From: Akkermansiaceae bacterium
GTDB taxonomy: Bacteria > Verrucomicrobiota > Verrucomicrobiia > Verrucomicrobiales > Akkermansiaceae
NCBI GenBank assembly: GCA_031422775.1
Contig: JANPMK010000089.1
Location: forward strand, 14,945 to 78,944
DNA: 64,000 nt
Direction of reading: 5' to 3'
The position numbers and the translations under genes were made by a program. Positions 10,290-61,471 of the stretch are shown here, piece by piece; positions within the stretch are counted from its first letter, which is position 1, and each line of letters begins with the position of its first letter. Below the pieces are notes generated by a model, which worked only from the letters and a program-made list of their open reading frames with translations, was not told where the DNA came from and did not search any database.

Positions 10290-11471
10290 GTGCGCAAGCT
10301 GTTCCACTTCCAAAAATTCATCAGCCTCACAGGTTTTTTCGTCCTGTCCCTCACCATCTCCTCTGCACAAGAAGACGCCCCCCCCGCTGTCACACTCAAA
10401 GACATCGATACCTCCATCACTCGCGGGGTCGACTTCCTGATCGGCGACCAAAACGAAAACGGTTCCTGGGGCAGCGCGACCCGCACCAAGCATATCAATA
10501 TCTACGCTCCCCTCCCCGGTGCGCATGACGCTTACCGCGCCGGAGCAACCGGGCTCGCACTTAGCGGTATGATCGACTCCGCAGACAAGCGACCCGAAGC
10601 TCTCGCATCCATCGAAAAATGTGCGGCATGGTCCATCGAACATCTTCCCAAGCTCCGCCGAGCGGATCAGACCACAACTTACAACATCTGGGGTCACGCT
10701 TACGGGCTGCGCTCCTTTGTTCGTCTCCATCAAACCGAAACCAACCCGGAAAAAAAAGCCCTCTATAAAACCCTCGCCCAACAACAAATCGATCTTGTCG
10801 GTCGATACGAGGATATCAACGGTGGCTTCGGTTACCTTGATCTGTTTGACGATTTCACCTCACAGAAACCCACTGGCATCACCACATCATTCACCTCTGC
10901 TACCGTTCTTCTCGCCATGTATGAAGGTCGAGAAAAACTTGGGCTTACTCTGAATAATAAAGTCGTCAGCACATCGCTCGATTCAATCAAACGGCAACAA
11001 TTCCCTGATAAAACATACGGTTATTCCCACAATCACATCATGCGCCCCCGCGCCGATATCAACCGCCCCGCTGGCTCCCTCGCTCGTTCGCAATCATGCA
11101 ATGCTGCGCTGCGCGTGTTCGGCCGCGATGGCATCACCGACGAAGTCATCATCGAATGGGCCGATCGCTTCCTCGCTCGCGAAGGTTGGCTTTCCATCGC
11201 CCGCAAACGCCCCAAACCCCACGACATCCATTTCAAAATTTCCGGCTACTTCTATTACTACGGCATCTACTATTTCACCGAATCTGTTAGACTACTCCCC
11301 ACAGAAAAACAAAAACCCTACGCCGAAAAACTCGCCGCTCTCATCCTTTCCAAACAGGAAAAAGACGGCTCATGGTGGGACTACCCGCTCTACGATTATC
11401 ACCAACCCTACGGCACGGGATATTCGCTGATGGCACTTAGTTGGTGTAAGAAGGTGATTGCTGGTTCGTGA
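10290..11471 (+). CDS. secreted prenyltransferase/squalene-cyclase-repeat (terpenoid cyclase-like alpha/alpha toroid) protein
   Basis: Signal peptide, then repeats of the type RGVDFLIGDQNENGSWGS and SKQEKDGSWWDYP, characteristic of the prenyltransferase/squalene oxidase repeat family. Confidence 0.6.
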   Translation: MRKLFHFQKFISLTGFFVLSLTISSAQEDAPPAVTLKDIDTSITRGVDFLIGDQNENGSWGSATRTKHINIYAPLPGAHDAYRAGATGLALSGMIDSADKRPEALASIEKCAAWSIEHLPKLRRADQTTTYNIWGHAYGLRSFVRLHQTETNPEKKALYKTLAQQQIDLVGRYEDINGGFGYLDLFDDFTSQKPTGITTSFTSATVLLAMYEGREKLGLTLNNKVVSTSLDSIKRQQFPDKTYGYSHNHIMRPRADINRPAGSLARSQSCNAALRVFGRDGITDEVIIEWADRFLAREGWLSIARKRPKPHDIHFKISGYFYYYGIYYFTESVRLLPTEKQKPYAEKLAALILSKQEKDGSWWDYPLYDYHQPYGTGYSLMALSWCKKVIAGS

Positions 11472-11606
11472 GACACCGCCCTGAAGGGGCGACCTATGTT
11501 AGCTTAGGGCAAAGCCCTAGGTCAGATACCCAAAGATAAAACGGGCAAGCTAACAGCTCTGTTGCATCCACAGCCCCGCCGCAGCCCGATGGATAAATGC
11601 GATATG

Positions 11607-11630
11607 AAAAAAGCCGGTCGGAGACCGGCT
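11607..11630 (-). terminator. rho-independent terminator of topB
   Basis: The minus strand reads AGCCGGTC-TCC-GACCGGCT followed by TTTTTT, starting 7 nt after the topB stop. Confidence 0.65.
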
Positions 11631-11636
11631 CTCCGG

Positions 11637-32924: not shown

Positions 32925-34007
32925 TCATTTGCCGCGCCGTTTTATACGAAAAATGAGTCCCCTCGGAAATGGTCTGAAAGCCTTATGTGAACGGATCATC
33001 GTTTCAGTGGGTTTAGCGGTTGGATTGTAAAACATTTCAGCCCAGCGCGCCCAAGCAACCCACGGATTATATCTGTATAATACTTGTTCCCTTGCTCTAC
33101 CAACTGCTTGAATCTCTTCAGGCTCTCTGGGAAGATCAAGCAACGCAGCAATTCTATCCGCTGCATGGTCCGGTGATTTGATGTCTAAAGCGATAAAGGA
33201 ATTTTTAGGAAAATATTCGTCGAGATTTGGACAGCCAATATATAATGGAAACGCCCATCCCAGATATGCATCGAGGATTTTCTCTGTCCAGTAATGCGGC
33301 GCGCGGCAGTTTTCCATCGCTAGATGAAAGCGATAGCCTTGTATCGCAGCTGACTTGTCATCAATAGGTTCAAAGCCACGACCAAAATGCACAAGCCTAT
33401 CACCCAACTTCTCCTTGAGTCTTTTGAGAAAAGCCAGACGCTCCCTTTGTCCGATTGTGAAAGATGCGTTGGAACATACGACACTGACTTTATTCAGGAC
33501 AGCCTCGGGCGCTTTCATCGCTTCCAACTCTCTGAATCCAATTTCAATATTTGACGAAAGATGATTGAATCCGAACTGCCAGCTTAGGCAGGGTGCATGC
33601 AGTGTTACACGAGGATGACCCGATTGCTTGTGGGTATCAATAATTTGATGAAACTGCCTATAGAATGCTTTCGGATATACTTTTTTAGACTCTGGCTCAG
33701 CTGCGATGAATAAGGTGTTTTCTGGGCTACACCTCATCTTTTCCATCGGTCGCGCATTAGCAAAAACAATCCAAAAATCAGCTTCCATTTCCTCTTTAGG
33801 ATTGAGGAAAAACTCACATCTGCCAATTTTGGGGTTTTTGCCTTCACTATATTCAGGGGCAATTTTTCCCAATCCACTGACACGACTATCAGTCGTGACA
33901 ACCACCCGCAAATACTTGCTGTGTATTCGGCTATCAGGAGTATCAAACATGTTGAAGACATGATCTATAACTTTCTTTGATTCTACAAGAACTTCCCATT
34001 CTTCCAA
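32925..34007 (-). CDS. GT10-like glycosyltransferase, paralog of 26435..27511
   Basis: YRFHLAMENCRAPHYWTEKILDAYLGWAFPLYIGCPN signature. Colinear with the other copy. The track start is TTG; Met20 (nt 33950) is an alternative. Confidence 0.6.
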   Translation of the reverse strand: MEEWEVLVESKKVIDHVFNMFDTPDSRIHSKYLRVVVTTDSRVSGLGKIAPEYSEGKNPKIGRCEFFLNPKEEMEADFWIVFANARPMEKMRCSPENTLFIAAEPESKKVYPKAFYRQFHQIIDTHKQSGHPRVTLHAPCLSWQFGFNHLSSNIEIGFRELEAMKAPEAVLNKVSVVCSNASFTIGQRERLAFLKRLKEKLGDRLVHFGRGFEPIDDKSAAIQGYRFHLAMENCRAPHYWTEKILDAYLGWAFPLYIGCPNLDEYFPKNSFIALDIKSPDHAADRIAALLDLPREPEEIQAVGRAREQVLYRYNPWVAWARWAEMFYNPTAKPTETMIRSHKAFRPFPRGLIFRIKRRGK

Positions 34008-34194
34008 TTTCAGCCTCGAGTCTAGAATCTATTTTCTCATCTTAACTCCTTCACTGATGAATTCTCATCCTATAGAAGAAACTTAAGTTGCTCAGCGTCT
34101 GATTTTTTGAGAAATTCTTGCCGCTAACTTGCGAAAGTTATTTCAAAGCTTTACAAGATTAAGAATACATTTTTCGATTAAAATTGTCTTTATC

Positions 34195-34998
34195 ATGAAT
34201 TTATCTAATAAAAAACCAGCAGCGATTGATACTAATATGCGTCACCGGATGCTGAGAGCATTTCGTGCTCCATTCAAACGCATGACACAGCTTATTGGTT
34301 TTGAGATTAAGAAAATTCGGAAATTTTCAGCCAAAGATGTCGCATTTCTACATATTGGGAAAAATGCTGGCACTCAAATCAGGTATCTTGAAAAGCTAAT
34401 CAATGACGCTCAGAGCCAAATCAGATTCGTTAATTATGGTCATGCCTTAAAATTAAATAATATACCAGAATCTGTTCCATATTTTTTTAGTATTAGAAAT
34501 CCTGTAACCCGATTCAAATCTGCGTTCTATTCGCGAAAACAAATAGAACGACGTTGGCATGACGTGGAAAAAATAGCGTTCGCGGATTTCGAGCATGCTA
34601 ATGATCTCGCTGAAGCCTTATTTTCAGGCGGAGACGCTGGAACACGCGCGTTTTGGGCAATGAACAACATCGGTCATGTCAACTCCGATCAGTTTGAATG
34701 GCTTGAAAATTGTGGCTACATATTCACACACAGAGAACCTATTTTTATTATTAGACAGGAAAACTTTGAAGCTGATTTCAAAGTTTTACTCCAAAGGTTG
34801 CATCTGCGTATAGATTGGAATCATTTGGACATCGCACCAAAACAGCAACGCTCAAATTCTTTTGATTATTTGGATACGCCAGAGCTATCTCCGTTAGCCG
34901 TGTCAAATTTAGAGCTTTGGTATAAGCGCGATTTTGAGTTTCACCGCACTTGTGTCGAATGGATTGAATCAAAAAAATCAAATGTAGATGATGTCTGA
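34195..34998 (+). CDS. sulfotransferase family 2-like protein
   Basis: FLHIGKNAGTQI (compare HIPKTGGT PAPS loop) and SIRNPVTRFKSAFY (compare RDPxxRxxS). Start moved to ATG 34195. Confidence 0.6.
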   Translation: MNLSNKKPAAIDTNMRHRMLRAFRAPFKRMTQLIGFEIKKIRKFSAKDVAFLHIGKNAGTQIRYLEKLINDAQSQIRFVNYGHALKLNNIPESVPYFFSIRNPVTRFKSAFYSRKQIERRWHDVEKIAFADFEHANDLAEALFSGGDAGTRAFWAMNNIGHVNSDQFEWLENCGYIFTHREPIFIIRQENFEADFKVLLQRLHLRIDWNHLDIAPKQQRSNSFDYLDTPELSPLAVSNLELWYKRDFEFHRTCVEWIESKKSNVDDV

Positions 34999-43190: not shown

Positions 43191-44306
43191 TCAAACCCCA
43201 ACCCGCAGATCCCTAACACTCCACAACGTCCCTCCCGCTCCTTTCCCTGCCCCCCGCATCTTCCGCGCTCCATCTTTTCTCTTCTCAGAAAATCTCTCTC
43301 GCGCCGCGTCAAACGCATCATTCACAAAGCTCTTGCTACCGATCACGGCCCCGTCCGTGAAATACCTTACCCGCGTCCGCAAGATTTTCGTCATCCCTAG
43401 CTCAGGTAAGCGTGACTCATCGTGGGGGCGATCATTGGTCGCCCTCCTGCCTTCTTTGCTTTCCTCAATCGCCGTAGAACGTTGAATCTTCGCATTCGAT
43501 GGCTTCCGCTCCAACGCCATTCCCATTAACCTCCGATACTGCCGCGATGCCTGTTTCCACATCGTCGCATCAAATCCCACATCACGATCCGACATCATCG
43601 CCCTCACCAATCCCTCCCGCGCCTTCTTACCATTTCCTCTCGGCCCTCCGCCCACTGCCTCCCCATAGCTACTCCAACGGTATTCCGCAGGATCTTCCAC
43701 CATCTTCGCCCTAACAGGATTTAGATCGATGTAAGCCGCCATCACTCGTGCCGCCGTGCCGCTCTCTACGATTACGCTTTTAAATCTATCCTCCCACAAC
43801 CGCCCCGTCCGCTTATGCTGACCGTTAAACCATTGGGTAAAACGCTGCATCAACCCTTTCATGAACTGACTCAGATCGTGCATGCGATGCGTGAACCGAC
43901 CCTTGATTTCCTCCACCCGCTCCGGGTTCCCTCCCTCTAGGCCGCCCTCATGCCTTGCTTCGTGAATTTGTGCCGCCACATCCGCCACAAACGCATCGCT
44001 GTATAAAGCCGAGAGACGCTTGAGAAACACATCATCGGCAATGCCTTCCTCCGGCTTAGGCGGAACCTCAACCAGCAAATGGATGTGATTGCTCATGATG
44101 CAATACGACAAAACTCGGCACCCACTGAAATTCTCATACATCCGCATAAACATTCGGAACTTCTCCTTCTCCTCCACCCCAAACGCAAACCTCCGCTCCA
44201 CAACCCTTGAAATACAATGGTAAATCGATGGTTTCTCCAACGAATCCTTCCAAGGCGATATCCAACGTGCACGTCTCATTTGCTCCTTTTTAACTCCCAA
44301 ATCCAA
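43191..44306 (-). CDS. IS200-like / REP-associated (RayT-like) Y1 tyrosine transposase family protein with a long C-terminal extension
   Basis: HUH motif SNHIHLLVEV and catalytic-Tyr helix AAYIDLNPVRAKMV. 371 aa. No terminal inverted repeats of a classical IS are evident. Confidence 0.75.
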   Translation of the reverse strand: MDLGVKKEQMRRARWISPWKDSLEKPSIYHCISRVVERRFAFGVEEKEKFRMFMRMYENFSGCRVLSYCIMSNHIHLLVEVPPKPEEGIADDVFLKRLSALYSDAFVADVAAQIHEARHEGGLEGGNPERVEEIKGRFTHRMHDLSQFMKGLMQRFTQWFNGQHKRTGRLWEDRFKSVIVESGTAARVMAAYIDLNPVRAKMVEDPAEYRWSSYGEAVGGGPRGNGKKAREGLVRAMMSDRDVGFDATMWKQASRQYRRLMGMALERKPSNAKIQRSTAIEESKEGRRATNDRPHDESRLPELGMTKILRTRVRYFTDGAVIGSKSFVNDAFDAARERFSEKRKDGARKMRGAGKGAGGTLWSVRDLRVGV

Positions 44307-44371: not shown

Positions 44372-44653
44372 TTACACTGGGTCTTTGTGTATCGTGCGCG
44401 CCCTGCACGATCGCTCTTCACTAACGTGCCTGATGTTGTCTCTTGTATAGATGTCATAGAATCCAAATCTATGGCATCTATGCTATCCTTGAATAGAGAG
44501 GTTCTGTTGGGCGCTTAAGAAGGGCGACCCAACGCACCATGCGATTCATCCGATGGTTACGAGCCCACATCTATAAAAACGCTCCTCTAAGCGAATCTAT
44601 CAAACGCCTCACCGCAGTCTGGTCTTGTTAACTTATCAACTTTTCCACACCGA

Positions 44654-45070
44654 TCAGTTATGCCTAATCGTAGAATTCCAAGATTTAAAAACCAATTTCC
44701 CGTTTTTAAATGTATTAAAAAATCTGACTATTTTTATATTTTCCATTCCAATATTAACATTAATATAACTAACAAATAATATTTTCCGGCAAACTATTTC
44801 TACATTGTTAAATATAATATTATTAACAAAATCAATAATGTCATTATGAGATTCGCAGGATCGAAAATTCCAAGAAGCAAACTCAGGTATGCTTTCAATA
44901 CTTAAGTCAGCACCTGCTTCAGTTATTACCAAATGAATTTTAATTTTATCAACAGCAGGTTGCTTTGTCTCTAATATATAAAAATTATTTTCGATGTCTG
45001 ACGCCGTTATTTCAAAAAATCCATCAAGCGCCATAAGATCATCAACAATAGCAGCTGGATAATTATCCAT
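44654..45070 (-). CDS. putative immunity protein for the upstream RHS C-terminal toxin
   Basis: 139-147 aa ORF directly after (or overlapping by 17 nt) the giant RHS gene on the same strand. Extremely AT-rich relative to the window. No signal peptide or TM. No family recognised. Confidence 0.5.
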   Translation of the reverse strand: MDNYPAAIVDDLMALDGFFEITASDIENNFYILETKQPAVDKIKIHLVITEAGADLSIESIPEFASWNFRSCESHNDIIDFVNNIIFNNVEIVCRKILFVSYINVNIGMENIKIVRFFNTFKNGKLVFKSWNSTIRHN

Positions 45071-45080
45071 GATTCGAATT

Positions 45081-48000
45081 TTATTTATTGGAAGCATTGT
45101 AAAGCCATCTTTTCAATATAGCTGTATCATTAGCTACATTATTCGGTACAAATGTTTTTGGAACTTGGAAGTGAAAGCTAGCGATATTAGGTCTCAAGGC
45201 ATTTGTGCCAAGTCCAAAGCGAAATGCCATTCCATACTCTCCAGCTGCAGTTCCAGTACTCCACCCGGCTTTAATGACCGATCCTGCTTGATTATAAGTC
45301 CCCCCGGCTCCTCCAAATGCCGAATGGCCAAATCTGGAGGATGTGACACCAAATATTTCGCTTAAAAATGCTTTTTTTCCTAGATAACTTAGCCCTGCTC
45401 CAACTCCCTTGAATATACCCCCACCGACTGCAGACGTAATCATGTATTCTTGTGTAGCTAGCGACGCCCCTAAGGCTTCGGATTTAGCAAAATTTGCAAA
45501 ATAGTGCAATTGTGCTTCTGCTCTCGGTGTAAAGACCGTTCCAAGTTCAAAATCATTTACGTCACCAGAAAATCCTAATGCCGATACCCCGTGGCACTGA
45601 ATGCACGGAAGTGCGGTATCTTGAGTAATGTATCTAGGTGTTCTTCTGTCCCCCTCCGCGTTAACCAGATGTTGGAATGCAGCAGTCCAAGCGCCGTTGG
45701 CGAATTTTCCTCCACCCAGCACCGAGGCTGTGCCGCCAGCAACACTAGCAACGGCAGTCCGTCCTGCAAGGCCTAGGCTAGAACCTATCTTTGTATCTGG
45801 ATTGGTTAGCCCGGATACAGCGGTTGCAGCTCCTGCTGCCGCTGAGATAAACCCATCTCCAAACTTTTCGCCCATTGCTACGTTGGTGGCACCACCAATA
45901 ATTCCGTGACCCACAATGTTTGCTACACCACCAACCATGTGCAGAGGTCCGGTCAATGCTCCCGAGATCCCTTGAATTGTTGCTCCGCGCAACACATCAC
46001 CCAAGTCTCCCCCATTGAGACCGGCACTAAGCGCACCAGTAACAGCTCCAACCACAGCACCCGCGGCCGCAAACCCAGCTATCGCCCCGTATGCTACGGC
46101 TGAATAGAAACCGACACCGCTTGCTGCAAGAGAATACGCCACAGAATAGGCTACCGATCCCGCAATGCCAGCGGTCACGATCGTAGCGACTACAGCCACA
46201 ACTATCACCACAATCGTCCGCCAGTTCTCTTTGATGAAGCTTCCTATTTTACTGAACGCCTTGCTGATGAACGAGAAACCACTTGGATCTGTTGCGTTAA
46301 GCGGATTGTTTAGAACGTAACTGTAGCGGTTGAAGTTTTGACTGTATTCGGGGATTTGGACGACTGGGTCGGGTGAGAGGAAGCGGCCTAGTTCCGGATC
46401 GAAGATTCGGCCGTTCATGTGGATGAGGCCGGAGTCGTCTAACTGTTCGTGGCCGGTGTAGCCGCGGTCGTGGTCTTTTGAGCTGGTGCGGAAGGGATCA
46501 GCATCGCTGGCGCGGTAGCTTATTTGGGTGGCGGCGTCGCGACGTTCGCCCCATGCATCGAAGGATTGGTATTCGGTGGATTGGCTGGCGAAAGATGAGC
46601 CGTTCCAGATGCCGACGACTAACGCATCGGTGGAGCCGAGGTGATCTGCGATGACGTTGGTGAGTTTGGTTCCGGGATTTGAGCCGCCGAGGACGCGGGT
46701 GTAAATCATTCCACCGCCGAGTGAATGCCTGTGCACAGTTTTGACCAGAACAGGGCTGGCCGTTCCGTTGGTTTTTGTCGTGTGTTTTTCACGCTCGTAG
46801 GAGCCGAGGTAGAGGGTGGTTTCGATTGCACGGGAATCATTCCCCGATACACGTTCCTTGATCTGGCGAGCGCGGCTGCCACCGGCATCGAAATCAAACA
46901 GGCTGGTCACCGTGCTTGCGCTGGCGTGGACGATGTTTCCGGAAAAATCCTTCAATTCAGGAACGCCTTGGTATTCGAGGCTTTGGAGCTGGCCGAAGGA
47001 GGTCCAAGTGTAGGTGCGCTTGCCGTCTGAGGTGACGTAACCAGCGGCATCGTAAGAGTAGGTGCGGTTGAAACCTTTCACTGTTGCCGATGTGACCGCA
47101 TGGAGGCGAGTCGGGCTGGCGTATGTTAGAGTGGCGGAGTTGCCTTTGGTGAGCAGGTTGCCTTTGATGTCATAGGAATAACTTTGTGGAGGTGGGACGC
47201 TGGTGATGGTCGCTCCTGGTAGGGCGACGACTGAGGATGATGTGAGGCGGTTCAGGGTATCATAGCCGAAGGTTTCACTGCGTTGTGCGATGATATCGTT
47301 GCGGATTTTCAAATTTCCCAAACTATCCCAAGTGTAGGTTTTGTTTTGGATGGAATCGCCATTGCGAGTAGCGGAAAGCGCAAGCACATCGCCTTTGGCG
47401 GGATCATAGGAGGCGATGATGTTGACGTTTTGGGCGAGATGTTGGGTGAGAGCGCGGCCCTTGCTGTCATAGATTCCCGCCTGCCATAAAACCGTGCCCG
47501 CACCTTCGTAGGTTCCGGGAGCGAGTTTTTGCCTCAGAGGGAAAGAATAATCCTCATCATACTCATTCATGACGGTCAGACCTCCGGCATCGGTCGATGA
47601 AGTGACGCGCCCCAGCGCATCGTAAGTGCTGGATGTGGTAAACGTTTCACCGAACTGAGTTTTGGATGTGGTGAGGGGTCGGCCTAATGAATCGTAGGTA
47701 AACGATTCCTGATAACCACTCGCCGCGCCGGAGCCGGTGATTTCAATGACCTTGCCGCGCAAGACGCCAGAGGCTCCGCTGTAGAGTGTGCTGTATGTGC
47801 CTTCGGGTTGGGTGACTGTTAGAGGTCGGCCCAAGACATCATAGGTGAATGATGAGACTTGGCCTTTTGCGTTGGTGGAGGAAAGGACTTCGCCAAAAGC
47901 GTTGTAGACGGAGGATGAGGTGCCGGAGTTGGTTTCGGTTACCGAAATTTTATTTCCAAACGTGTCCCAGGTGTTGGTGAGCAAGGTATTGCCACCGACG

Positions 48001-51000
48001 GAGACAGAGGTGAGTCGGCCCTCGACATCATGGTTGAAAAGAGTGGTTTGGCCGGATGGATCTTTGGACTGAACAAGTCTGCCGTGCTGATCTTCCCAAC
48101 GTTCCAATGTCTGATTCGCAACGTTGATGGATTTGGAGTAGGTGGCGGGCTGATCCCCGAGCATACAGTAACCTTGTTCTTCAACGGAGTCGCTAATGTT
48201 ACCGGGTCGATTGGTGCGGATGACACGACTGAGTAGGTCATACTCAATGGTTGTGTAGTTTGGAGCTTCACCGGCAGCAAACGAATCCGAGACCGATGAT
48301 TTGCGGCCTTGGCTGTCGTAATGGGTGACGGTGTAAACTTTTCCGTAACGCGCGGAGCCTACGGCGGTGCCATCGATGAGGATGGTGGTTTCCGTGACGA
48401 GCTCACGGCCCAAGGCATCGAGATAGACTTTGCCTATGGGTGTGCCGGAGGATTGTTTCGCGCGGAAATAAGCGATGTTGTGGGTGGAGTTGTGCGGCCA
48501 GACCGAGTTCGGGACTGAGAAGTTGGCAGCATAGCCCGTGACCTCAGCGGTCTCGGTGGAATCGGGATGATTGGTTTTGATGAGGGTGCCGAATGGATCG
48601 TAAGCAAAGCTTGTTGTTAGGCCATTGATGCCTGTTGTGGAGAGAACGAGGGCTTTATCGGAATCGTAGTTATAGGTCGCAGTGTAGCCGAGTTGGTTCG
48701 TTTCCGAGATGACGAATCTACCTCTGGAATCATAGGTTGTAGATGACGAGCGTGTTAGTCCTGAGCCTGCAACTGTCGTGGAAACCACGTTGCCAAATGC
48801 GTCATGCGTGTAGGATTTGGTAACAGAGAGCGGATGTCCGGGTTCTACGGTTTCCGATTTCAGGATGCCGGTTCCGGTATCGTAGGTGAAGGCGGAGTTT
48901 TTCTGGCTGGCTGTGAGTCCCTGCTTGGTCTTGGTGACGCTTGCAGAAGACAATCGACCCAAGTGCCATTTCGTTGAAGTGATGTTGTGGCTGTAGACAC
49001 TATTGGTGGTCACGGATGACTCATCTAGGGAGGTAACGCTTGAGATTTTCACAAATCCATAAGCATCAAAATCCGCTAGATTTTGAGTGGTGACTGTTTC
49101 GCCTTTTAAGGTGCCATCGAGATCAAAAATATGATTCACAGATCTGGTCTGTACCGGACGGCGTATGGTGCCACCTACTCCGACCTGACTTGGCATTTCC
49201 GAGTAGATTGCGGACTGGATAGATAGAATTTTGCGACCCGCGGTGAAAGCTTGCCCCCCATGATTCGGGGGCATGAGTAAGCTGTCTGCGGCAGTCAGAT
49301 TGACGCTGGTTTGTGTGTAAACCGGACTCCCCGCGAAAGGGAACTCACGATGGCTGTCCGTGCGTGTGAGCTGGCCGTTGGTTTCATCCAAAGCCTCGAC
49401 CCAACCGAAGCCCAGGGAGGCTTCATTGGTTTTGTCATATCGAAGATCGCCGTAGCGTTGGGATTTCCAGTTGCGTCCGCCCAGACCGTTGGGTTCCGAG
49501 TAGCGTGAAACCACTAGACGAGAATCAATCAAGCTTGCATGGCCGACTGGAAGAGTTCCGGTGAATTTCTCGTAGACTCTTGCTCCAAAACCCGTGGTTG
49601 GGGTTGGATCGTTGAGGCGGTGATACTGAACTTGGAGTTCCGAGCCAAAGCCATCGGTGATGGCGGTGATGATTTCGGGTTTGGCTTGGTTGAGATAAAC
49701 GGTGGGGCGTTCTCCGTTACGGATATTCGCAACGATATCAGGAAAGCCATCTCCATTGATATCCACCACCATGGAGTTGGGATCTGGGTAATTTTTTTTG
49801 CCGAGCTTAAATCCATCCGGCAGTCCCCATGATTGATCCTGTATCCAACCCTTTCCGGTATTGATGAATGCGCCATTGTTGGTTCCTGAAAACGGATCGT
49901 TGCTGGTGACCGTGCGCTTGCCATCGGGTCCAATGTAATCAGTGCCATCGCGAGAATATAGAATATCGACTAAGCCGTCACCGTTCAGGTCTGCAAACTG
50001 TGAACAGGTTTGATCGTCGCCGGCATCCGAATCAAGAGAGAGCGGTAGTGTGTAACCTTGTCCGTAAGTAGAAGTATCTCTCAACCATCGATTTGCTCCC
50101 ACAGAAGTATCTCCACGGTTGAACCACGTGGAATGAGAGAGCTCAATTTTTGTATTCGTGCTAAAAAGTTTCGTGAACGCACGCACGATATCCACAAGGC
50201 CATCGCCATTCACATCGACCATTTGGGTCCCTGCCCCATTCCTAAGACTGTTAGAATCAGGATTTTGAACGAGAGGAGCATTGCCATCCACACTTGTGGG
50301 ATTGCTTCGATTCATATTTGAAGTCGAAGGATATGTGGCGGCGGGGAACTTCCAATCAGGGATGTCTTTATCTGGGAGAGATGATAACCAGGAAGGGTAT
50401 AATGCCGAAGAAGTAGGAGCTCTAAACTTTCCGGTGTAACGCGTATCAACATAGGCTGTGCTGGACGCTTCGACGGTGGATTTTACATAATCCAAGAAGC
50501 CATCTCCGTTTAAATCTACGAGTGCACGTCCGATGTCGTGAATTTTATGAATATCGTCGAGGTATAGTAGGTCTTCTGGTGGAGCCAATGCGTCATTTTT
50601 GACCCAGCCCTGTCCTAGATGGCAACGGTTATGGAAGACCGTACGTGAACTCTCTGGAAGAATTTTAGCTGATGCTGGGAGTGAAGTTAGCGGACTCGCA
50701 TTAGCCAGCCAACCCCAATTTGAGGTATTGATAAAAAGATCTAGGTAGCCGTCTTTATCGATATCGATCAAATCACGTGAAATCAGGTGACGCTTTCCAC
50801 CATACTCACTCACTGAGTTATTATTTCTGGATTCAAATGTGGGTGAATACCCAGCTAGTTCCACCCATCCAGTGCCATTGTGCGTGAGAAATTTGAACTT
50901 ATTAATGGATGTATAGCCGTTATATGCCCTTCTATGTTCTGTGACGAAAAGATCCATCTTGCCATCTCCATTGATATCGCAGGGCACGGAGCTGAGATCA

Positions 51001-53627
51001 TGTCTTGCTGACCAACCGCTATCTTGACCTGAATTTGTAAACGCATAGCGGCCGATAGGCTTGTATATTTCATCGGAGTAAAATCCGTCTCCTGAATTTA
51101 AATAAACACCTCCAACCACATCCGCATCCGTTTGGGTAATTAGTGCATCATTGACAATGTCCCAATCCGTAACCCTGTAGTCTGTTAGATCAAGAAGCCC
51201 ATCATTGTTGATGTCCATGAAACGCATGCCACGCGTTAAGTTGCTATTGTTACTAAACAAGGGAATTTCACTGATATCAGGAAAAGTGGCGGCTGAAACT
51301 TGGTTGTTATCGAGCTGTGTGGCAGTTCCAAAACGGATATTTTTAAATTCGCTCCAGCTAGTTCCATTGGTCGTGCTATTGTCATAATTAATGAATGCGA
51401 GGTAAGGGTAATTTCCTGCGACGAGACTAGCCGAGCCACTTACATTTTGCAGGGGAACTCTAAATGTCTTCCACTGGGAGTTTTCTCCTGGGCCATAAGT
51501 GATACTGCGATCACTGCTGATGGGTGATGCGACAGTCGTATCAGGACGAACATGAACGACAAACTCAGCACCCTGATTCCAAGCATCATTTGTATCGACG
51601 ATCAGGTAGGCTCCTTTATCAAGATTATCTGACCGAAATTGAAATTCCACAAATGAGTTGTTCGGAACCACCACAGCTGGCGTCTGAGCTACCAATCGTC
51701 CAACTGCTCCTTCAAGGCGGATCGAGTCGGATTGGGTTTCGGTAAATGAGGTAATATCACGGTCAATCGTGATGAATGAATCGCCGTAGCTTGGAAGCAC
51801 GATTTGCTCAGCTTTTACCCATTTGTTTGGTATGCTATTCGCACCCTGCCATGTAAAAACGGTCGGGCTGGTTGTAAATCCACCTGCATGTTGCCTGAAC
51901 ATAGATGCTAAAACCGACCTGCCCGTTTGCGCGCTAGTTTGGTAATTTAAAAAGTAGGTATGGTTGGTGTATGCACCTGTTTTGACTGCGATTTCCTTGA
52001 GGCGATTGTTCGTCTCATAGCGTAAACCGCTGGCATGATAGGCAAAGCTCTTATCCGGCCTGTCTTCGTAGGTAAAATTGATGCTGCAATACGGCGCTAA
52101 CCCGCTGTCGTTACCCGTGTAGTTTACAGAAGTTACGCGTCTATCTATCACGTTATTTGTCGTATGACTCGCTTGTCCTGACCAATTGACCAAATAGTAA
52201 TTGCCATTTGTGTCGGATACTTTTGAGACGTCCCACGAAATAGGTGCGTTGTAGAGCGGAGCAACAATTTTAGAACTGCTAGAATTTCCTAACTGTATAA
52301 TGAGTCCAGCCTTTGTCTCAACCTGCCACCATGAATTCGTATTGTTTTGGTTTCCACCTTTCAGAGTGATGCGTGCGAATGAATCGATTTCAGTGCGGTA
52401 TTCTGAATTCTGTTGGCCATAAGTTCCAGCTACACAGACCAACTTTTCTCCATTGAAAAAGAAGCGGTCATCGCCATCGAAACGTACAGCGCCTTCAAAA
52501 CCATCTTTCTGCAAACTCGCTGGCCCACGGGTGATGCTTTGGAAACCCGATAAGGACCAGCCCACACCAGCAATCCCATTTCCGGCACCGGATGAATAAT
52601 TCAGCGAAACTTTCGGTTCCATCCCTGCGGTGCCTTTTGGAATATCAATCGGCATCGAGTAGGTCATTGAGCCATCGCCACCAACAGACATCGAACCCTT
52701 TAACGAAGTAACAGGTTGATGCGTGCCGAGAATGGTCACAGGGGGAATGCTTCCTTGCTGCGGCAGTGGTGCACTACCATTTAATCCACCAAGCCAAAGT
52801 GAATCCATGTAATGATCGAGAAATGATTTTCCTGTACCGGGCTTGATATTATCCCTATCGTAGAGGTTTGGATTCGAACCGTTAGCAGTCTCCCATGCGT
52901 TTGGTAGACCGTCTTTATCCGTGTCGGGAAACATGGTATTTGCTGGATCGACCGTTAAATCATCTATCAGAGTGTCACCTAGCCGGCTGCCGTAGAGCTC
53001 GATGTTTTCTAAATTTGCCCCGCGCCCTTCGAATGCCAAGTTGGCCGCCGCCAATTTTCCACCGATGAATAAATCCCAGATATTACGCTGGTAGTCGTGG
53101 CGTAAAGTGATCCTTGTGTAACCCGAAGCTGTTAAACCATTTGCAGCGAGCGCAAACGTCCCAACTGTTTTCGCCCACTGGGCTGGATTTGTTTCACCCG
53201 AGCTACCATTCAAAACCCAAATATTTCCTGAGTTCGTGCCGACTGGAACCTGAAACGCGAGCTGTGTTCCATTCGAATGAAAACTCGCCTGACTGCCCTC
53301 AGGATCAGCTGCGGGTTTGAGTTGTAGATCGATGAATGCAATTTTCTCAGCGGCATTCCATTCGATATCTCTAACCAAAAGCGGTTCTTGTGCCGCGTTA
53401 GCTTCGATTTTTAAAGCCTGCCCACCGCCAACGCCTTGGCCATTCGCGGAGATGGCTGCATTTCCGGACAACAGCGACCATCCAGTGCCATTGGTAATTC
53501 CTAAAACTTCACCGGGATTATAGACGGGGCTCTCAAATGAGATTGGCGGTAAATATGCCAGAAGTTGATTCGTCCAGATAGCTGAGCAACAAATCGTGGT
53601 AACACTCGCCTTTAAAAAGTAGTTCAT
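45081..53627 (-). CDS. giant secreted TcB/TcC-like RHS-repeat polymorphic toxin (SpvB-like domain + FG-GAP/VCBS-type repeats + RHS shell + core + variable C-terminal region)
   Basis: 2848 aa with an N-terminal hydrophobic signal. [12 protein letters not shown] Ca-binding-like motif. SpvB/TcB signature [39 protein letters not shown]. DxNGDG loops ([53 protein letters not shown]). More than 15 YD repeats (YDSRGRF, YDVLGRP, YDSLGRP, YDALGRV...). RHS core ...[30 protein letters not shown]...[17 protein letters not shown]. Confidence 0.9.
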   Translation of the reverse strand: [2848 protein letters not shown]

Positions 53628-56474: not shown

Positions 56475-57908
56475 TCACTTTTCCTTATCTTCAATCCTGT
56501 CAGCAGCACGGCGCACGCGGCTGACATATTGTTCGAGGGTTTCGCTCTTCTTCAGATTGAGAGCCGCTTGAAGGTTAATCAGAGCATCGCTGTAACGGCG
56601 CTCACGCACTAACATTTGACCAAGTGCGAGGTTTGAAGCGTAAGCAACTTTCTCGACCCTTGCCGCGAGCTGGTAACTTGTCCGAGCCTCCACAACTAAG
56701 GCCTCGCGTTTGCTTTCATCGGTTTCATCACGCGAGAGAAGATCTTTGTGACGAGCAAGCTCTAACAATACCTCGCCATCCGCAGGATTGAGTTCGACAA
56801 GTTTGTTGAGTAAAGTGCTGGTGCGTTCTTTCTGCCCTAAAGATTGAGATATTCTCACCTCAACAAGCAGGATAGAGGTAAGATCTGCAGGTAAAATTTT
56901 GTCGCCAAGTTTCGTCCGGATACTGGTGATGAACTCATCCGCCTGGTCGGGAAATCCATAGTCATTCAGAATGCGTGCTGACTTAACTGTGCGCGCAACA
57001 TCCAGTGTCTTGGACTTTTCGATGGCAGCTTGATAAGCCAACAGTGCGAGCTGAGGCTCATTCTGATCCATGTATAGGTTGCCGAGTAGATTGAGGTTTG
57101 CTTCATCCGCGATACCCTTAAGCCTCAGCACTTCAAGGTTTACGATGGCATCGTCCTTTCTCTCCATGGCGAGGTATGCATTGGTTTGCTGCAACCATAA
57201 TTGTTTATCGTTCGGGTTAGCATCGATAAGCGTTCCGATCAAATTGGAGCCTTCTGTATATTTTTCCTGCGTCATTAGAGCTTGTGAGAGCCCGAGTTTC
57301 CAATCACGCGATGAGGAATCAAGCAAGTAAGCTTGGCGATATGCGTTCTCAGCGGCGACAGCGTCTTTCTTTAAAAGATGACAATAACCTAACAGACCGT
57401 ATATCCGTGCGGAATTCTCACCCAACTCGATGGCCTTCTGTAAAATCGGCAGAGCTTCGTCGGTTTTATTCTGTGAGACATAGAGATAAGCAAGGTTCGT
57501 GTGTGCACGGCGAAAACGTGGAAACTTACTGATGGCCTCCAAGAAAGAACGGCGGGCATCATCATTCCGACCTGCTTGGAAATACAAATTTCCCATCACA
57601 AAAATCATAGCGGGACTGATTTCTGTAGCCACTTTCTTGCGATCTGTCGGGTGTTCAGTTTCTTGAATGAAAGCTGCTAACTGTGCCTCAGCCTCTTTAA
57701 ACTTAGATTTCTCAAACAGGTCACGGACAGCAGTAAGCGCAATCTGTTCTTCAGCAGAAACTTTAGGCTCTACGTCTGAAAGGAAACCGTAGGAACCAAC
57801 AAAATCGCGCACAAATTTTGGATCACGAAATAGGTTTGAAGGTGGAATGATCTGCTGTGCAGATAAAGCCGTGACTAGCAGCATGGAGATAGTGATGGAG
57901 CGGAACAT
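56475..57908 (-). CDS. periplasmic TPR-repeat protein (TtpD-like position in a TonB2-type cluster)
   Basis: Signal peptide, then repeated TPR-like helices (A..YLA/YQA...P.D). Last gene of the exbB-exbD-tonB string. Confidence 0.65.
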   Translation of the reverse strand: MFRSITISMLLVTALSAQQIIPPSNLFRDPKFVRDFVGSYGFLSDVEPKVSAEEQIALTAVRDLFEKSKFKEAEAQLAAFIQETEHPTDRKKVATEISPAMIFVMGNLYFQAGRNDDARRSFLEAISKFPRFRRAHTNLAYLYVSQNKTDEALPILQKAIELGENSARIYGLLGYCHLLKKDAVAAENAYRQAYLLDSSSRDWKLGLSQALMTQEKYTEGSNLIGTLIDANPNDKQLWLQQTNAYLAMERKDDAIVNLEVLRLKGIADEANLNLLGNLYMDQNEPQLALLAYQAAIEKSKTLDVARTVKSARILNDYGFPDQADEFITSIRTKLGDKILPADLTSILLVEVRISQSLGQKERTSTLLNKLVELNPADGEVLLELARHKDLLSRDETDESKREALVVEARTSYQLAARVEKVAYASNLALGQMLVRERRYSDALINLQAALNLKKSETLEQYVSRVRRAADRIEDKEK

Positions 57909-57929
57909 GGTATAGTGGTTTCTTTGCTA

Positions 57930-58631
57930 TCAGTTTTTCTTAACTTCAAAAGTGAATGGAACAATGCAGGTGGCTTTAATTTTTTTACCCTCTTTCATAG
58001 CGGGCTTAAAAATCCACTTACTGACCGCGTTGATCGCGGACTTATCGAGATCCGAATGACCGGAAGATTGTTTGATGGCGGTGTTCGTGACGCGTCCATC
58101 TGCGTCCACCGTGCAAGAAACGAGTACCTTGCCGCCCACACCATTTTTGAGAAGCGAAGCGGGATAGATCGGCTGGCTCTTGCTCGCCGGAAATGGAGGG
58201 GAGTCCATTTCCCCTCCAAGCAGGTCTTCCCCATCACCTCCGCCGCCTCCTCGCCGTCCGAACCCAGAAATGTCAATCGCGAAGCCAGAGCCACTTGATA
58301 AAGCCAGATCTCCGACATCAATCCCAAGATCCACGTCCGATGATTCCTGAGCATCCGACGCCATCTCGATCGGCTCGATCGACTTCTCAACCTCTTCGAG
58401 TTCATCCAACTCTTCGGGCTCCTCCAATTTCTCCTCATCTGGCGGCGGTGGCGGAGGCGGTGGGGGGATGGTTATATCCACAATCTGATATTCCTCAGCC
58501 TCCTCCTCGCCCTCCTGATTTCCGCCGTTGAATATGAAATTCGCCACCCCGCCAATCAAGACGATGGCCAGCATCACGCCGATAACCCAACGGTGGCGTG
58601 ATTTGGTTGGCGGTTTGGAAAACGGTGGCAT
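57930..58631 (-). CDS. tonB: TonB-family energy transducer
   Basis: N-terminal TM, P8 and acidic linker (PPPPPPPPDEEKLEEPEE). C-terminal TonB_C-like YPASLLKNGVGGKVLVSCTVDADGRVTNTAI...AINAVSKWIFKPA. Confidence 0.8.
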   Translation of the reverse strand: MPPFSKPPTKSRHRWVIGVMLAIVLIGGVANFIFNGGNQEGEEEAEEYQIVDITIPPPPPPPPPDEEKLEEPEELDELEEVEKSIEPIEMASDAQESSDVDLGIDVGDLALSSGSGFAIDISGFGRRGGGGGDGEDLLGGEMDSPPFPASKSQPIYPASLLKNGVGGKVLVSCTVDADGRVTNTAIKQSSGHSDLDKSAINAVSKWIFKPAMKEGKKIKATCIVPFTFEVKKN

Positions 58632-58712
58632 TGGATCTTTCGAAGTTGGCTAGGAATAGCGGGCCTGAAGTCAAAAATCACTCGGCTCAACTTATTCCGG
58701 CAGACTTGTCAT

Positions 58713-59108
58713 TTATTTTTTGACTTGGGTAGCAAGGCCGATCTTATCGATACCCAGACGCCCAAGCACCGACATCACATCCATGACTTTCTGATATTGC
58801 GCCGAGCTATCTCCCCGCACGACGACCGGCAAATCCGGCGTGGCTGCCTTGAGTGCGCTAAGCTTGGTTTCGAGCTCTTCCAATGACACTGGTGTTAGGT
58901 TCAGCGAAATCCGCCCTTCTGGATCCACCGTAATCGCCTGAATCTTGGGAGCCCCAATATCCGCTGAAGACTTCCCACTCGCGCTAGGCAGTTCAACTTT
59001 CACTCCCTTTACGCCTGCTGCGGTCATCACAATGAAGATGAGGAGTAGAACCAGATAGAGGTCCACCATCGGTGTGACGTTGATATCGTCGTAGTTTTCT
59101 GAGGCCAT
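58713..59108 (-). CDS. exbD: ExbD/TolR-family biopolymer transport protein
   Basis: DINVTPMVDLYLVLLLIFIVM N-terminal signature. 131 aa. Confidence 0.85.
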   Translation of the reverse strand: MASENYDDINVTPMVDLYLVLLLIFIVMTAAGVKGVKVELPSASGKSSADIGAPKIQAITVDPEGRISLNLTPVSLEELETKLSALKAATPDLPVVVRGDSSAQYQKVMDVMSVLGRLGIDKIGLATQVKK

Positions 59109-59162
59109 GGCTTTAAAGGTTGGGTTGGTGGATTGGCGAGAATCTGGGTGGGCGGGGTGCGA

Positions 59163-60695
59163 TCAATCTTTGCTAGGATAGAACTCGGCCATCTTGGCGA
59201 CGAACTCATCGATGAAAACTTGGATCTCGGCAGTCGTGTTTTTGATCCGACCGTTCAGGTAGGAATAGATGAACAAGGCGGGAATCGCCACGATGAGGCC
59301 TGCAACGGTGGCAAGCAGCGCCGATGCAATACCAGGGGCGATGGCGTTGACGTTTACTTCGCCTTCCTTGGAAATGATGGCGAAGGTGATCATCACGCCG
59401 ACCACCGTTCCAAGGAGACCGACGTATGGTCCGCCCGCGATACTGATCGTGAGGTAAACCAAGCCGTCAGTCATCTTGTGCTGGATCTGCACAAGGCCAG
59501 CATCGAGCGAGGCGCGAATGGCCAGAATGGAACGTCCCGTGAGGCCAGTCGTCTGATTCGGCCCCGGAGATAGGCGATGGCTGATTTCCTCTGAGCCAAT
59601 GTGATAGATTTCATAAAACGGTGACTTCTGGATGACCTTCTGAGCCGCGGGATCCGCGTTGCCACCGAAGCTGCTGACACTGTCGCCGCAAGCGTGGTCG
59701 ATAGCGGTGAGATCAGAGGAAAGTCTGCTCCACTGGCGAAGGAACTCGGCACTGCCTTTGTGAATGGAGTTGAGATAAAAGAGTTTTTTGACCGCGACAG
59801 ACCATCCGACCAGAATCATGAGAACGCAAATCGCAATGGCTACCCAACCGTCGAACATCATATTCTTAGCGATGTCTCCGAACAGCATGACGTGTTCCAT
59901 GGCCTTATTCTGCCCGCCAGGATGTTTGATCTCGGCATCGATTGCCTTGCCCATGGTTCCGTCAAAAGGAAGCTCACCCTTTCCTGTCTCGATGGCCTTG
60001 GCGATAGTGCCCTCGGACTTGTTGATCGAGACAACAGCGGGAAGACCCGAGCCCGTGTCAGCAGGTGGGGAAATGCCCTCGGTTTTCTTGTCCGTGGACG
60101 CAAAAAATACGGAAGGACCAGCGATAAAAAGTGTACCATCAATCGCGCGTCCCGCGAAACCGAGAGCTTTGCCCTCGAAACGATGTCCTCCGGCTACCGT
60201 TCCGAGACGCTTGATCCCAAGCTCCAGAACCTTCAACCGCTCAGTCATCTCACCTTTAGGATCGCCCACAGATGTGAACGCCTTTTGGTCGATGTTCGCG
60301 ACCTGATCGCGATAAAGCTGGAACTCAGCGGGATGAATGCGGGTCACGAGCGCCTTCGAATACTGGTTAAGCAGACCCGATGTGTAGGTGAATCCGCCCT
60401 TGCGAGTTTCGAGATCACGCTCGAGAACCTTAATCTTGGTGGTGCGTAGTTCCTCCTCACGTTCGAGGGCGCGAAGCTCTCTGGCGAGCAAGAGAGCTTC
60501 GTCATCACGACGATTCACTTCTTTATAGAGTGCGCGACGGAGGTCCGCGTATTCCTTTTGAGTGCTCTGGAGCTCGCTGACAGCTTTATCAAGTAGAGCG
60601 CGGGCGCTCTCGTTCGGATTCGGTGCGGTTTTCGCCTCGGCGGAAATGGAAGTAGCCACGATAAACATGGCGACGGCTAAGTTGATAGGTTTCAT
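59163..60695 (-). CDS. long MotA/TolQ/ExbB proton-channel family protein (TtpC-like: periplasmic coiled-coil N-domain plus ExbB channel)
   Basis: Signal or TM, then about 280 aa of periplasmic coiled coil, then GGPYVGLLGTVVGVMITF and APGIASALLATVAGLIVAIPALFIYSYL (ExbB motifs). ATG 60695 overlaps the stop of the upstream gene (ATGA). Confidence 0.8.
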   Translation of the reverse strand: MKPINLAVAMFIVATSISAEAKTAPNPNESARALLDKAVSELQSTQKEYADLRRALYKEVNRRDDEALLLARELRALEREEELRTTKIKVLERDLETRKGGFTYTSGLLNQYSKALVTRIHPAEFQLYRDQVANIDQKAFTSVGDPKGEMTERLKVLELGIKRLGTVAGGHRFEGKALGFAGRAIDGTLFIAGPSVFFASTDKKTEGISPPADTGSGLPAVVSINKSEGTIAKAIETGKGELPFDGTMGKAIDAEIKHPGGQNKAMEHVMLFGDIAKNMMFDGWVAIAICVLMILVGWSVAVKKLFYLNSIHKGSAEFLRQWSRLSSDLTAIDHACGDSVSSFGGNADPAAQKVIQKSPFYEIYHIGSEEISHRLSPGPNQTTGLTGRSILAIRASLDAGLVQIQHKMTDGLVYLTISIAGGPYVGLLGTVVGVMITFAIISKEGEVNVNAIAPGIASALLATVAGLIVAIPALFIYSYLNGRIKNTTAEIQVFIDEFVAKMAEFYPSKD

Positions 60696-61471
60696 GGCTG
60701 TATGATGGGAAGTTGGGTAAAGGAAACTTCTGTCTCGCTGGTAGCGGTGACTAGGAGTTTTAGGATTTGAGGGGCAAGTTCGTTGCGCTCTTGAAATTTC
60801 CAACCGTCTGCGCCCGCTCGGCCGGCCAAGGCAAAACTCCCGTCTTCATTCACTGCGTATGCGAACGCCAGACCAAAATAGACAACCTGCAAGTTAAACT
60901 CCTCACCCTTGGAATTCTTGTGGAGCTCAGGAAACACATGGACTCCTTGCTGGAATTTCTCCACATCCGCCATGAGTTCAGTAACTGTCACTAGCCTCTT
61001 GGAAACGTCATCGGTTTGGCCGTCTGCAGGCAATAAGAGATTCTTCTGGATCGCTTCTATCGCCTGCGTGACTTTAGGATTACTCTTAAGAGACGCTGGT
61101 AAGAGTGGGAATTTGGCTGCCAAGTTTTCCTCCATCACCCTGAGTTGGCGTTTGAGTTCGTCTTCAGCCGCGGTGAGACGATCCTTTTCGGATACCTTAT
61201 CGAGGGACTGTTGGTCAGCACCTTCCTTACGCGTCTTTGCAGAGGCAATTTGCTCCTTGAGAGAAGCAATCTCGCTATCAAGACCTTCCTTGTAATTCGT
61301 TAGAACTTCCTGATCGCGAGACCAATCGTTTTCTTCCTGTTGGATTTTCCGCATGGTCTCGACCCACTCCCGCACCGATGTACGAAGCTCTTCGTTAGGT
61401 GTAACTGCTGCTTCTTGAGCGAAGACTGTGAGAGATAAAGCCAGACTGAATATGGTAATGTAGGCGCGCAT
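60692..61471 (-). CDS. periplasmic coiled-coil protein, DUF3450-like (TtpB-like position)
   Basis: 259 aa with a signal peptide and a long coiled coil. Translationally coupled to the TtpC-like gene, an arrangement I recall for TonB2-type clusters. Confidence 0.5.
   Translation of the reverse strand: MRAYITIFSLALSLTVFAQEAAVTPNEELRTSVREWVETMRKIQQEENDWSRDQEVLTNYKEGLDSEIASLKEQIASAKTRKEGADQQSLDKVSEKDRLTAAEDELKRQLRVMEENLAAKFPLLPASLKSNPKVTQAIEAIQKNLLLPADGQTDDVSKRLVTVTELMADVEKFQQGVHVFPELHKNSKGEEFNLQVVYFGLAFAYAVNEDGSFALAGRAGADGWKFQERNELAPQILKLLVTATSETEVSFTQLPIIQP

Follow-up and report, generated by a model that had tools for sequence, protein, structure and literature searches.

The stretch of DNA analysed here, hereafter the window, comprises 64,000 nucleotides (nt) of contig JANPMK010000089.1 from an Akkermansiaceae bacterium and contains a giant Rhs gene, located at positions 45081..53627 of the minus strand, which encodes a protein of 2848 amino acids (aa). 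In this work we studied the end of this gene, 45081-46274 (-), which is exactly aa 2452-2848 (397 residues) plus the stop codon, and the small open reading frame (ORF) that lies next to it. An earlier note, made from the letters of the window alone, had taken this end for the C-terminal payload of an Rhs polymorphic toxin, and the payload that we found is indeed of this kind and modular: a conserved pre-toxin module, a linker and a basic toxin core follow one another, and a predicted immunity gene is found next to the core. Rhs polymorphic toxins paired with immunity genes are a well-known kind of system.

The part of the protein that precedes the payload has the features of a cocoon-like shell. 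The shell repeats match the RHS/YD models PF05593 (E 9e-31) and TIGR01643 (E 1.5e-17), and the protein also contains SpvB (aa 317-484), FG-GAP repeats, TcdB_midN and RHS repeats (PF03534, PF13517, PF01839 and PF12256), besides a weak, sub-threshold match to TSP3 repeats. The cocoon ends in the RHS repeat-associated core, aa 2358-2451 (46275..46556, -), which reads ...GRIFDPELGRFLSPDP...NNPLNATDPSGF, the last residues, NNPLNATDPSGF, being found at aa 2447-2451. The NCBIfam model TIGR03696 (Rhs_assc_core) matches aa 2358-2450 (E 1.5e-18), and a profile built from homologues aligns the core end with the PDB chains of YenC2, TccC3 and Rhs. The PxxxxDPxG[LF] motif of aspartyl autoproteolysis is present at the core end, and cleavage at this motif (DPSGF) should release everything located downstream.

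The N-terminus of the giant protein is hydrophobic and signal-like, and its first 209 aa (53000-53627, -) gave no match in a Pfam scan. The N-terminal ~230 aa, which are unassigned and precede the TSP3 match, are conserved in a 2811-aa relative (P0171), and may represent a surface- or target-binding domain. Polymorphic toxins with a signal peptide, SpvB, an integrin-like propeller and RHS repeats have been described as the 'TcdB/TcaC' class (Zhang et al. 2012; PMC3482391), to which, judged by its domains, the giant protein belongs. The genes beside it are housekeeping genes, and none of the scanned ORFs of the window encodes a type VI secretion system (T6SS) or TcA component. A variable tip and an adjacent cognate immunity gene, by which Rhs/YD polymorphic toxins are recognized, are both found here.

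Directly after the autoproteolysis site there are about 207 Gly/Ala-rich residues (aa 2452-2658; 45654-46274, -), composed of 19.8% Ala, 18.4% Gly, 11.6% Val and 7.2% Ile, against 6.9% Ala and 9.7% Gly in the body of the protein. The first part of this module, aa 2452-2536 (46020..46274, -), opens with an amphipathic stretch, SFISKAFSKIGSFIKENWR, followed by a hydrophobic Gly/Ala/Val/Ile segment; the hydrophobic run extends over approximately aa 2468-2535, with Kyte-Doolittle means of up to 2.74 over 19 residues. The second part, aa 2537-2658 (45654..46019, -), is a predicted Gly-rich helical bundle bearing two GGKF motifs, GEKFGDGFISAAA and GGGKFANGAWTAAF. The hydrophobicity and the Gly/Ala richness of aa 2452-2658 are real, and the some 200 G/A/V/I-rich residues that the earlier note had described after DPSGF are present with all the strings it quoted. 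The spacing of its small-xxx-small zipper runs is not statistically established beyond what composition gives: we counted 27 small-x3-small-x3-small runs against 19.5 +/- 4.1 in shuffled sequences, a number reached by 99 of 2000 shuffles, and nine GxxxG against 6.7 +/- 2.1, reached by 376 of 2000. The second part also contains two motifs that are alike, GG..N.A.GGKF.DGF.SAA and GGT.S.LGGGKFANGA.TAAF, which suggests an internal duplication of a unit of ~35 residues.

Using aa ~2442-2667 as a query, we found homologues of the module in at least 218 proteins, mostly metagenomic; several are named as Akkermansiaceae or Verrucomicrobia, and others as Colwellia, Microbulbifer, Pseudomonadales, Bradyrhizobium and Thioglobus. 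The similarity among these proteins runs in a fixed order: the Rhs core, SxAFxKIGxWxKENWR, a variable hydrophobic stretch, GGDLGDVLRGA, HGVVGGxxNxAxGGKFxDGFLSAA and GRTAxAxxxGGTASxLGGGKFANGAxTAAFxHLLNxE. Immediately past LLNxE the sequences are unrelated. The border motif GGKFANGA..AF..LxN is found in 78 of 120 homologues, and is mostly followed by 100-200 unrelated residues; the border has the form L[LVF]N-x-E in the family and HLVNAE in the window protein, with the Asn (N2656) conserved in at least 90% and G-K-F-x-x-G-A invariant. The hydrophobic stretch varies in sequence and in length (46-96 aa), a transmembrane-like hydropathy being kept in 50 of 58 homologues, and the segment after it has a constant length (112-140 aa). 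The tails behind the module carry, according to precomputed Pfam assignments, CHAP, VanY/Peptidase_M15_4, Peptidase_M23, Lipase_3, Mbeg1-like lipase, Tlde1, Tox-REase-7 and PF15607 (Ntox44) domains. Because one conserved module is combined with unlike tips, the Gly-rich residues are not part of the variable payload; what had been regarded as an exchanged toxin part is instead a conserved module, found in at least 218 proteins with different tips.

Among cultured bacteria, the module is found in a 2579-aa 'FG-GAP-like repeat-containing protein' of Ensifer adhaerens (strain CTYH.Ch1, WP_275028075.1) and in an 'RHS repeat protein' of Janthinobacterium lividum (strain EIF2, WP_176386344.1) that adjoins a separate FG-GAP protein, and none of the genes listed beside these two carriers is a T6SS or TcA gene. 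A tblastn search of plasmids with the module of the window gave no match; the matches came with a more typical family member as query, and lie in RHS or FG-GAP proteins only. Some short matches (~280-390 aa) looked like free-standing proteins, an interpretation that we rejected, the gene starting at a contig end in at least one case (P0013). On the E. adhaerens plasmid NZ_CP118613.1, a gene annotated as 'L,D-transpeptidase' (155 aa; positions 11205-11672 of our locus L018) lies right after the toxin of a module carrier; it fits the Tlde1-type tips of other members, although for an immunity gene the position is unexpected. A literature search for the GGKFANGA motif found nothing.

AlphaFold2 modelling of the module from 58 sequences predicted eight helices (mean predicted local distance difference test score, pLDDT, 89; predicted template modelling score 0.76), of which those at residues 8-23, 25-58 and 63-93 of the 221-aa query (pLDDT ~90) include a long helical hairpin. 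Foldseek returned no neighbour of this model at E<1 in the PDB, and its weak neighbours are membrane proteins. PDB sequence searches with single sequences and with profiles likewise showed no chain similar to the module beyond the Rhs core motif.

The module is distantly related to DUF637 (PT637), the pre-toxin domain of CdiA-type toxins of the type V secretion system (PMC3482391). All nine module members tested match the C-terminal half of DUF637 (PF04830; model ~75-168, E 1.4e-5 to 6e-10), and six of the nine exceed its gathering score of 26.6 bits (P0023 28.8, P0074 28.7, P0080 36.4, P0101 35.1, P0104 39.5 and P0111 26.9), these six being 32-47% identical to the window segment. We filed the window module as a distant relative of DUF637 and not as a certified member, because its own sequence misses the model while homologues 42-47% identical to it, over 96-97% of its length, match. 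In CdiA, a VENN motif delimits a bipartite C-terminal region (CdiA-CT) that is processed by the pre-toxin domain, and a change from VENN to VENA blocks both processing and killing (PMC9424206). The window protein has no match to PT-VENN (PF04829); HLVNAE is found at the position of VENN, but it is a different motif. As for the haemagglutinin context of CdiA, the carrier here is an Rhs protein in which a Pfam scan found no haemagglutinin repeats.

The final ~190 aa, which the earlier note could place in no toxin family and treated as a single domain, indeed match no named toxin family or solved fold, but they are made up of two units, an 84-aa linker and a 106-aa core. The linker (aa 2659-2742; 45402..45653, -), a putative entry module, contains a CIQCH motif (CxxCH; aa 2675-2679; 45591-45605, -), followed by a predicted long helix; the AlphaFold2 confidence is below 50 at the motif and ~60-75 along the helix (query residues 49-81). 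The window protein shares this linker with two relatives, P0059 and P0171. The second of them is collinear with the window protein and 43% identical to it over aa 1-2744, having the pre-toxin module and the linker in common with it, and then ends in an unrelated C-terminal domain, that is, a different toxin. Because P0171 keeps the linker and yet carries a different toxin, the linker is a separate unit, and its alignment with the window protein places a second exchange or recombination joint at about aa 2743. A two-part payload had been proposed for this region; the modular organization was confirmed, but there are three modules, and the pre-toxin part is conserved instead of polymorphic.

A CxxCH upstream of the toxin core is also found in P0059, P0124, P0152 and L011, and P0171 has one ahead of its different toxin; the motif occurs in four of 204 proteins against 0.03 expected. 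In P0124, P0152 and L011 the linker is of a different type, C-x-[MD]-CH..G.YYDQL..YR. CxxCH is the signature of haem c attachment, here in a protein whose N-terminus is signal-like, and a Pfam scan of aa 2452-2848 showed no cytochrome match. For the motif in the linker, haem attachment, a metal knuckle and a disulfide are all conceivable. A Cys pair is also present in the entry domain of CdiA-CTs (PMC9424206).

The toxin core corresponds to aa 2743-2848 (45084..45401, -; 106 aa, 11.1 kDa, isoelectric point (pI) 10.2). A word-indexed homologue search with the last 196 aa returned nothing; with an exhaustive HMMER search, 74 representatives came up at E<=1e-3, and 37 of these reached E<=1e-10. 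The terminal domain, presented as novel in the earlier note, is not unique and defines a family of 74 representatives that extends across phyla. What these proteins share is their final ~106 aa, which in every case form the very end of a carrier of 1.4-3.0 thousand residues that has an Rhs core, a Bacteroidota-type Rhs core or a Hint domain. A search for genome loci, which ran with a 9-sequence alignment, located the core in Akkermansiaceae, Saprospiraceae, Chitinophagales, Lewinellaceae, Bacteroidales, Echinicola, Rhodothermales, Anaerolineaceae and one Pseudomonadota metagenome-assembled genome; its carriers span Verrucomicrobiota, Bacteroidota, Rhodothermales, Chloroflexota and Pseudomonadota. 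In the examples from Bacteroidota there is no pre-toxin module between the Rhs motif and the core, so core and module are independent of each other.

The family motif is LFLSExFG[IV]TSxxFGNS...G.LN..G...K.GWS...R.G.G...N.A..H...P.TFVPN. In the alignment, G2760, S2763, G2776, N2779, K2786, G2788, W2789 and H2819 are invariant, and F2754, S2769, S2790, G2799, R2803, G2805, G2807, A2816, V2827 and N2833 are nearly so; all 41 cores examined are very basic (pI 9.8-12.0). The AlphaFold2 model of the core has pLDDT >90 and consists of a helix, a long ordered loop, a beta-hairpin, a strand and a C-terminal helix. Searches for known toxin families were negative throughout: the window domain matched no Pfam or NCBIfam family at E<=1, and 41 core members gave no match to Pfam at E<=0.01 or to NCBIfam at 0.1, although these sets include the Ntox and Tox families. 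With the tip model, Foldseek gave no usable match (best E 1.0 in the PDB and 0.25 in BFVD). The failure of a 100-residue model to match anything in Foldseek is weak evidence of a new toxin fold. A tblastn search of plasmids with the window core gave no match, and the core motifs were not found in the supplement of the toxin screen of Danov et al. Two weak similarities were attributed to chance, a DUF6621 match in the Pfam/NCBIfam scans (E 0.034) and one of the toxin profile to a tropinone-reductase-like short-chain dehydrogenase/reductase in the PDB (E 0.027, 47 residues), in which the region concerned is helix/strand and that of our model is loop.

Ten nt past the toxin stop codon there is an ORF of 138 aa (44654-45070, -, with the ATG at 45070; pI 4.9, GC content 0.28) that homology and synteny identify as the predicted cognate immunity gene of the core. 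Its product is 33% identical (E 4e-23) to that of the gene located 7 nt after the closest toxin homologue, P0059, and an ORF of 145-157 aa lies within a few bases of the toxin stop codon in 13 of 14 genome loci. Profile-profile comparison connected the window-type and the Bacteroidota-type immunity proteins (probability 88%, E 3e-6). At none of the 14 loci has the immunity protein a signal peptide, a lipobox or a membrane segment, and only one protein exceeds a 19-residue hydropathy of 1.6; their pI is ~5-6, against 9.8-12 for the toxins. Such signal-less, soluble immunity proteins are consistent with a terminal domain that acts in the cytoplasm, as the earlier note had supposed. No convincing Pfam family was found for the immunity proteins of 11 loci, the best single match, of one member to DUF530 (E 0.0022), being treated as chance, and no relative of them was found in the PDB.

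About 60 nt past the immunity gene, a terminator-like hairpin followed by a T run (44580-44593, -) likely marks the end of the operon; it is a consensus match only, one such hairpin having been found against 0.4 expected in shuffled sequences. Just downstream of the toxin-immunity pair, an ORF at 43191-44306 (-) encodes a partial IS200-like Y1 transposase domain, and a distantly related Y1-type gene (38% identity over 88 aa) occupies the equivalent position past the closest toxin homologue, which lies on an unrelated contig from a metagenome (L001:1640-2584). The toxin cassette may be associated with an IS200-like Y1 element.

The end of the gene is also distinct in base composition. The GC content at third codon positions (GC3) is 0.515 in the body of the giant gene and 0.62-0.72 over the last 300 codons of the shell, directly ahead of DPSGF, which puts the first drop at the start of the region: GC3 is 0.459 for aa 2452-2658, 0.345 for aa 2659-2742, 0.283 for aa 2743-2848 and 0.209 for the downstream ORF. 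No stretch of 106 codons in the body has a value as low as that of the core (body minimum 0.368; z = -2.6 for the core), and the immunity ORF is the lowest-GC spot of the 64-kb window. The AT-richer gene end that had been noticed by eye is therefore present as a stepwise fall, not a uniform profile, across the junction, and is clearer in GC3 than in total GC. The tip and its immunity gene are of foreign base composition.

Taking these data together, we think it reasonably probable that the region is the three-module cargo of a Sec-exported polymorphic toxin of the TcB/TcC type, made up of a delivery module, a linker and a cytoplasmic toxin, and accompanied by an immunity gene. The 39.7-kDa fragment would be held unfolded or shielded inside a BC-type cocoon, and an aspartyl autoprotease at DPSGF would free it; hydrophobic cargos are kept within the cocoon in Tse5 (PMC10684867) and BiTLP (PMC13018210). 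The first module would be the delivery part, its hairpin and bundle inserting in the target envelope and passing or presenting the tip behind them. The conserved Asn border may be a VENN-like recombination joint and a probable processing site, and the linker, an exchangeable unit, may serve for entry or as an adaptor, comparable to the N-terminal half of CdiA-CTs. The basic core would be an enzyme in the target cytoplasm, most likely acting on nucleic acid, whose chemistry might involve the invariant His2819, Lys2786, Asn2779 and Ser2763 and the nearly invariant Arg2803, and which the soluble, acidic 138-aa immunity protein would neutralise.

Several of our results weigh against this reading or narrow it. 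The proposed chemistry of the core is its weakest link, because no fold or family match backs it: no structure or sequence match in the PDB and BFVD searches assigns the core an activity, and RNases of the BECR fold (colicin D/E5, CdiA-CT tRNases, barnase) are missing from the Foldseek PDB matches, so that an RNase of this fold is not favoured, although the sensitivity of such a search is limited for a 100-residue domain. The aa 2452-2848 of the window itself gave no match to DUF637 in Pfam at E<=1, and the link of its module to DUF637 is transitive and covers half of the Pfam model. Glycine-zipper spacing, whose counts barely exceed those of composition-matched shuffles, had to be dropped as a signal in itself. 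Moreover, many sister tips (CHAP, VanY, M23, Tlde1 and lipases) have their site of action in the periplasm, so the module cannot be a translocator dedicated to the inner membrane and would rather move its cargo to or through the outer layers, the inner-membrane step being left to the variable part. We know of no precedent for an alpha-helical crossing of the outer membrane. Finally, a cargo of 39.7 kDa is large compared with the 15-16 kDa of the cargos of T6SS Rhs cocoons (PMC10684867), and its fit in the larger BC-type shell is an assumption. In its boldest form, our reading would make the module, with its hairpin and DUF637-like part, a self-contained translocation device by which Sec-exported, BC-type Rhs cocoons that lack TcA and T6SS bring their cargo into neighbouring bacteria, an evolutionary bridge between the CdiA and Rhs delivery systems, and the core an enzyme with a fold new to the PDB; this form we hold to be conceivable but doubtful.

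Other functions can be imagined for the Gly-rich segment. It might itself be a glycine-zipper toxin that forms pores and depolarises membranes, like Tse5-CT, BiTLP-CTD or EsxX, in which case the protein would be 'double-bladed', with two toxic activities. The strong, Gly- and Ala-rich hydrophobic hairpin, the membrane-protein-like AlphaFold2 bundle with its weak Foldseek neighbours among membrane proteins, and the Rhs/YD cocoons known to hold hydrophobic pore-forming cargos (PMC9637101, PMC10684867, PMC13018210) agree with this possibility, but a pore toxin would hardly be conserved while tips and immunity genes vary. There is one small soluble immunity gene here, followed by the terminator-like site, with no membrane immunity protein; the zipper spacing is not above chance and no PDB chain is similar in sequence beyond the Rhs core motif, and we regard a pore toxin as unlikely. 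We likewise give little credit to a role of the module on the side of the producer, as a stop-transfer anchor, a packaging or plug element of the cocoon, or a secretion signal. In favour of such a role, the N-terminus of the protein is signal-like and genes dedicated to secretion are missing from its neighbourhood, its hydrophobic hairpin would arrest in SecYEG, and the module is tied to one class of carriers, the SpvB/FG-GAP/RHS proteins. The module, however, is located past the autoproteolysis site and would thus leave with the toxin; in CdiA, the related DUF637 belongs to the C-terminal part that is delivered, and packaging needs neither a conserved Asn-bordered junction nor some 120 conserved residues of a helical bundle.

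That the core acts on the envelope, in the periplasm or the membrane, or that it serves for binding instead of being a toxin, seems to us very improbable. Most annotated tips behind the module do attack the cell wall or lipids, a small and very basic domain could bind anionic lipids, and no catalytic fold was recognised by Foldseek in the PDB or BFVD. Nevertheless, a signal peptide, lipobox or membrane segment is absent from the immunity proteins of all 14 loci, an active site is suggested by the S, N, K, W and H that never vary and the R that hardly does, and a position at the extreme C-terminus of Rhs/Hint carriers, followed by a constant family of small genes, is the signature of a toxin.

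By its kind, the region adds another cassette to the polymorphic toxins. In the libraries and papers searched, however, the pre-toxin module, taken as an Rhs-linked, DUF637-related hairpin unit with a GGKFANGA...LxNxE border, appears to be undescribed, and so do the 106-aa toxin family and its immunity family. For the many Sec-signal SpvB/FG-GAP/RHS proteins of environmental bacteria that have to deliver their cargo without a TcA pore or a T6SS, the module is a testable candidate for the missing step, and its border provides a practical rule for telling where the toxin begins in them. The core, together with its immunity partner, constitutes an unnamed toxin/immunity pair, present in at least five phyla and with clear candidate catalytic residues.

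Two other features of the window deserve mention. Upstream of the toxin gene, a TonB/ExbB-type cluster (56475-61471, -) comprises MotA/ExbB with a long N-terminal extension (546 aa), DUF3450, TonB_C and tetratricopeptide repeat proteins, and has no evident tie to it. A second low-GC patch, at ~33800-34200 (GC 0.33-0.36), lies at the start of a GT10 fucosyltransferase-like gene (32925-34007, -) and adjoins an unassigned ORF of 289 aa (34129-34998). Surrounded by genes of a sugar-nucleotide/glycosyltransferase cluster, the patch may be a further acquired segment.

Among known systems, the BC components of Tc toxins (TcdB2-TccC3, YenB-YenC2) have in common with the window protein SpvB, FG-GAP/TcdB_midN, RHS and the aspartyl autoprotease motif, and the release of their C-terminal hypervariable region inside the shell is a further point of likeness. 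They differ in that no TcA partner was found, either among the scanned ORFs of the window or among the genes listed beside the cultured relatives, and in that the cargo of the window protein has a conserved membrane-type module at its front and an immunity gene as its partner, a pairing from which we conclude that it targets bacteria and not insects. Tse5-CT of P. aeruginosa and BiTLP-CTD are also helix-rich fragments resembling integral membrane proteins, held in a YD shell and freed by a C-terminal aspartyl protease (PMC10684867, PMC9637101, PMC13018210). In these, however, the fragment of ~16 kDa is the toxin itself and has its own immunity, whereas the hydrophobic part of the window protein, which has no sequence similarity to these fragments, is conserved and has exchangeable enzymes behind it. 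In Tde1, a T6SS DNase effector of A. tumefaciens, a Gly-rich segment before the enzyme permeabilises the target membrane for entry (PMC10240207); that region is much shorter, N-terminal and T6SS-delivered, we found no homology between it and the window module, and the GxxxG spacing of the window segment is not above chance. The Ntox/Tox families of Zhang et al. (2012) resemble the window core as C-terminal domains of ~100 aa found on Rhs/Hint carriers in many phyla and having a dedicated immunity family (PMC3482391), but no Pfam/NCBIfam model, those of the Ntox and Tox sets included, matches the core family.

CdiA differs from the window protein in its carrier, a filamentous haemagglutinin with CdiB instead of an Rhs cocoon of the SpvB/FG-GAP class, and in its border, VENN instead of HL[LV]N-x-E. 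To our knowledge, the hydrophobic hairpin at the front of the window module has no counterpart in CdiA. The order of the parts is nevertheless alike in the two systems: a conserved pre-toxin domain, an Asn-containing border, an exchangeable Cys-bearing sub-domain, a small toxin and an adjacent immunity gene (PMC9424206, PMC3482391).

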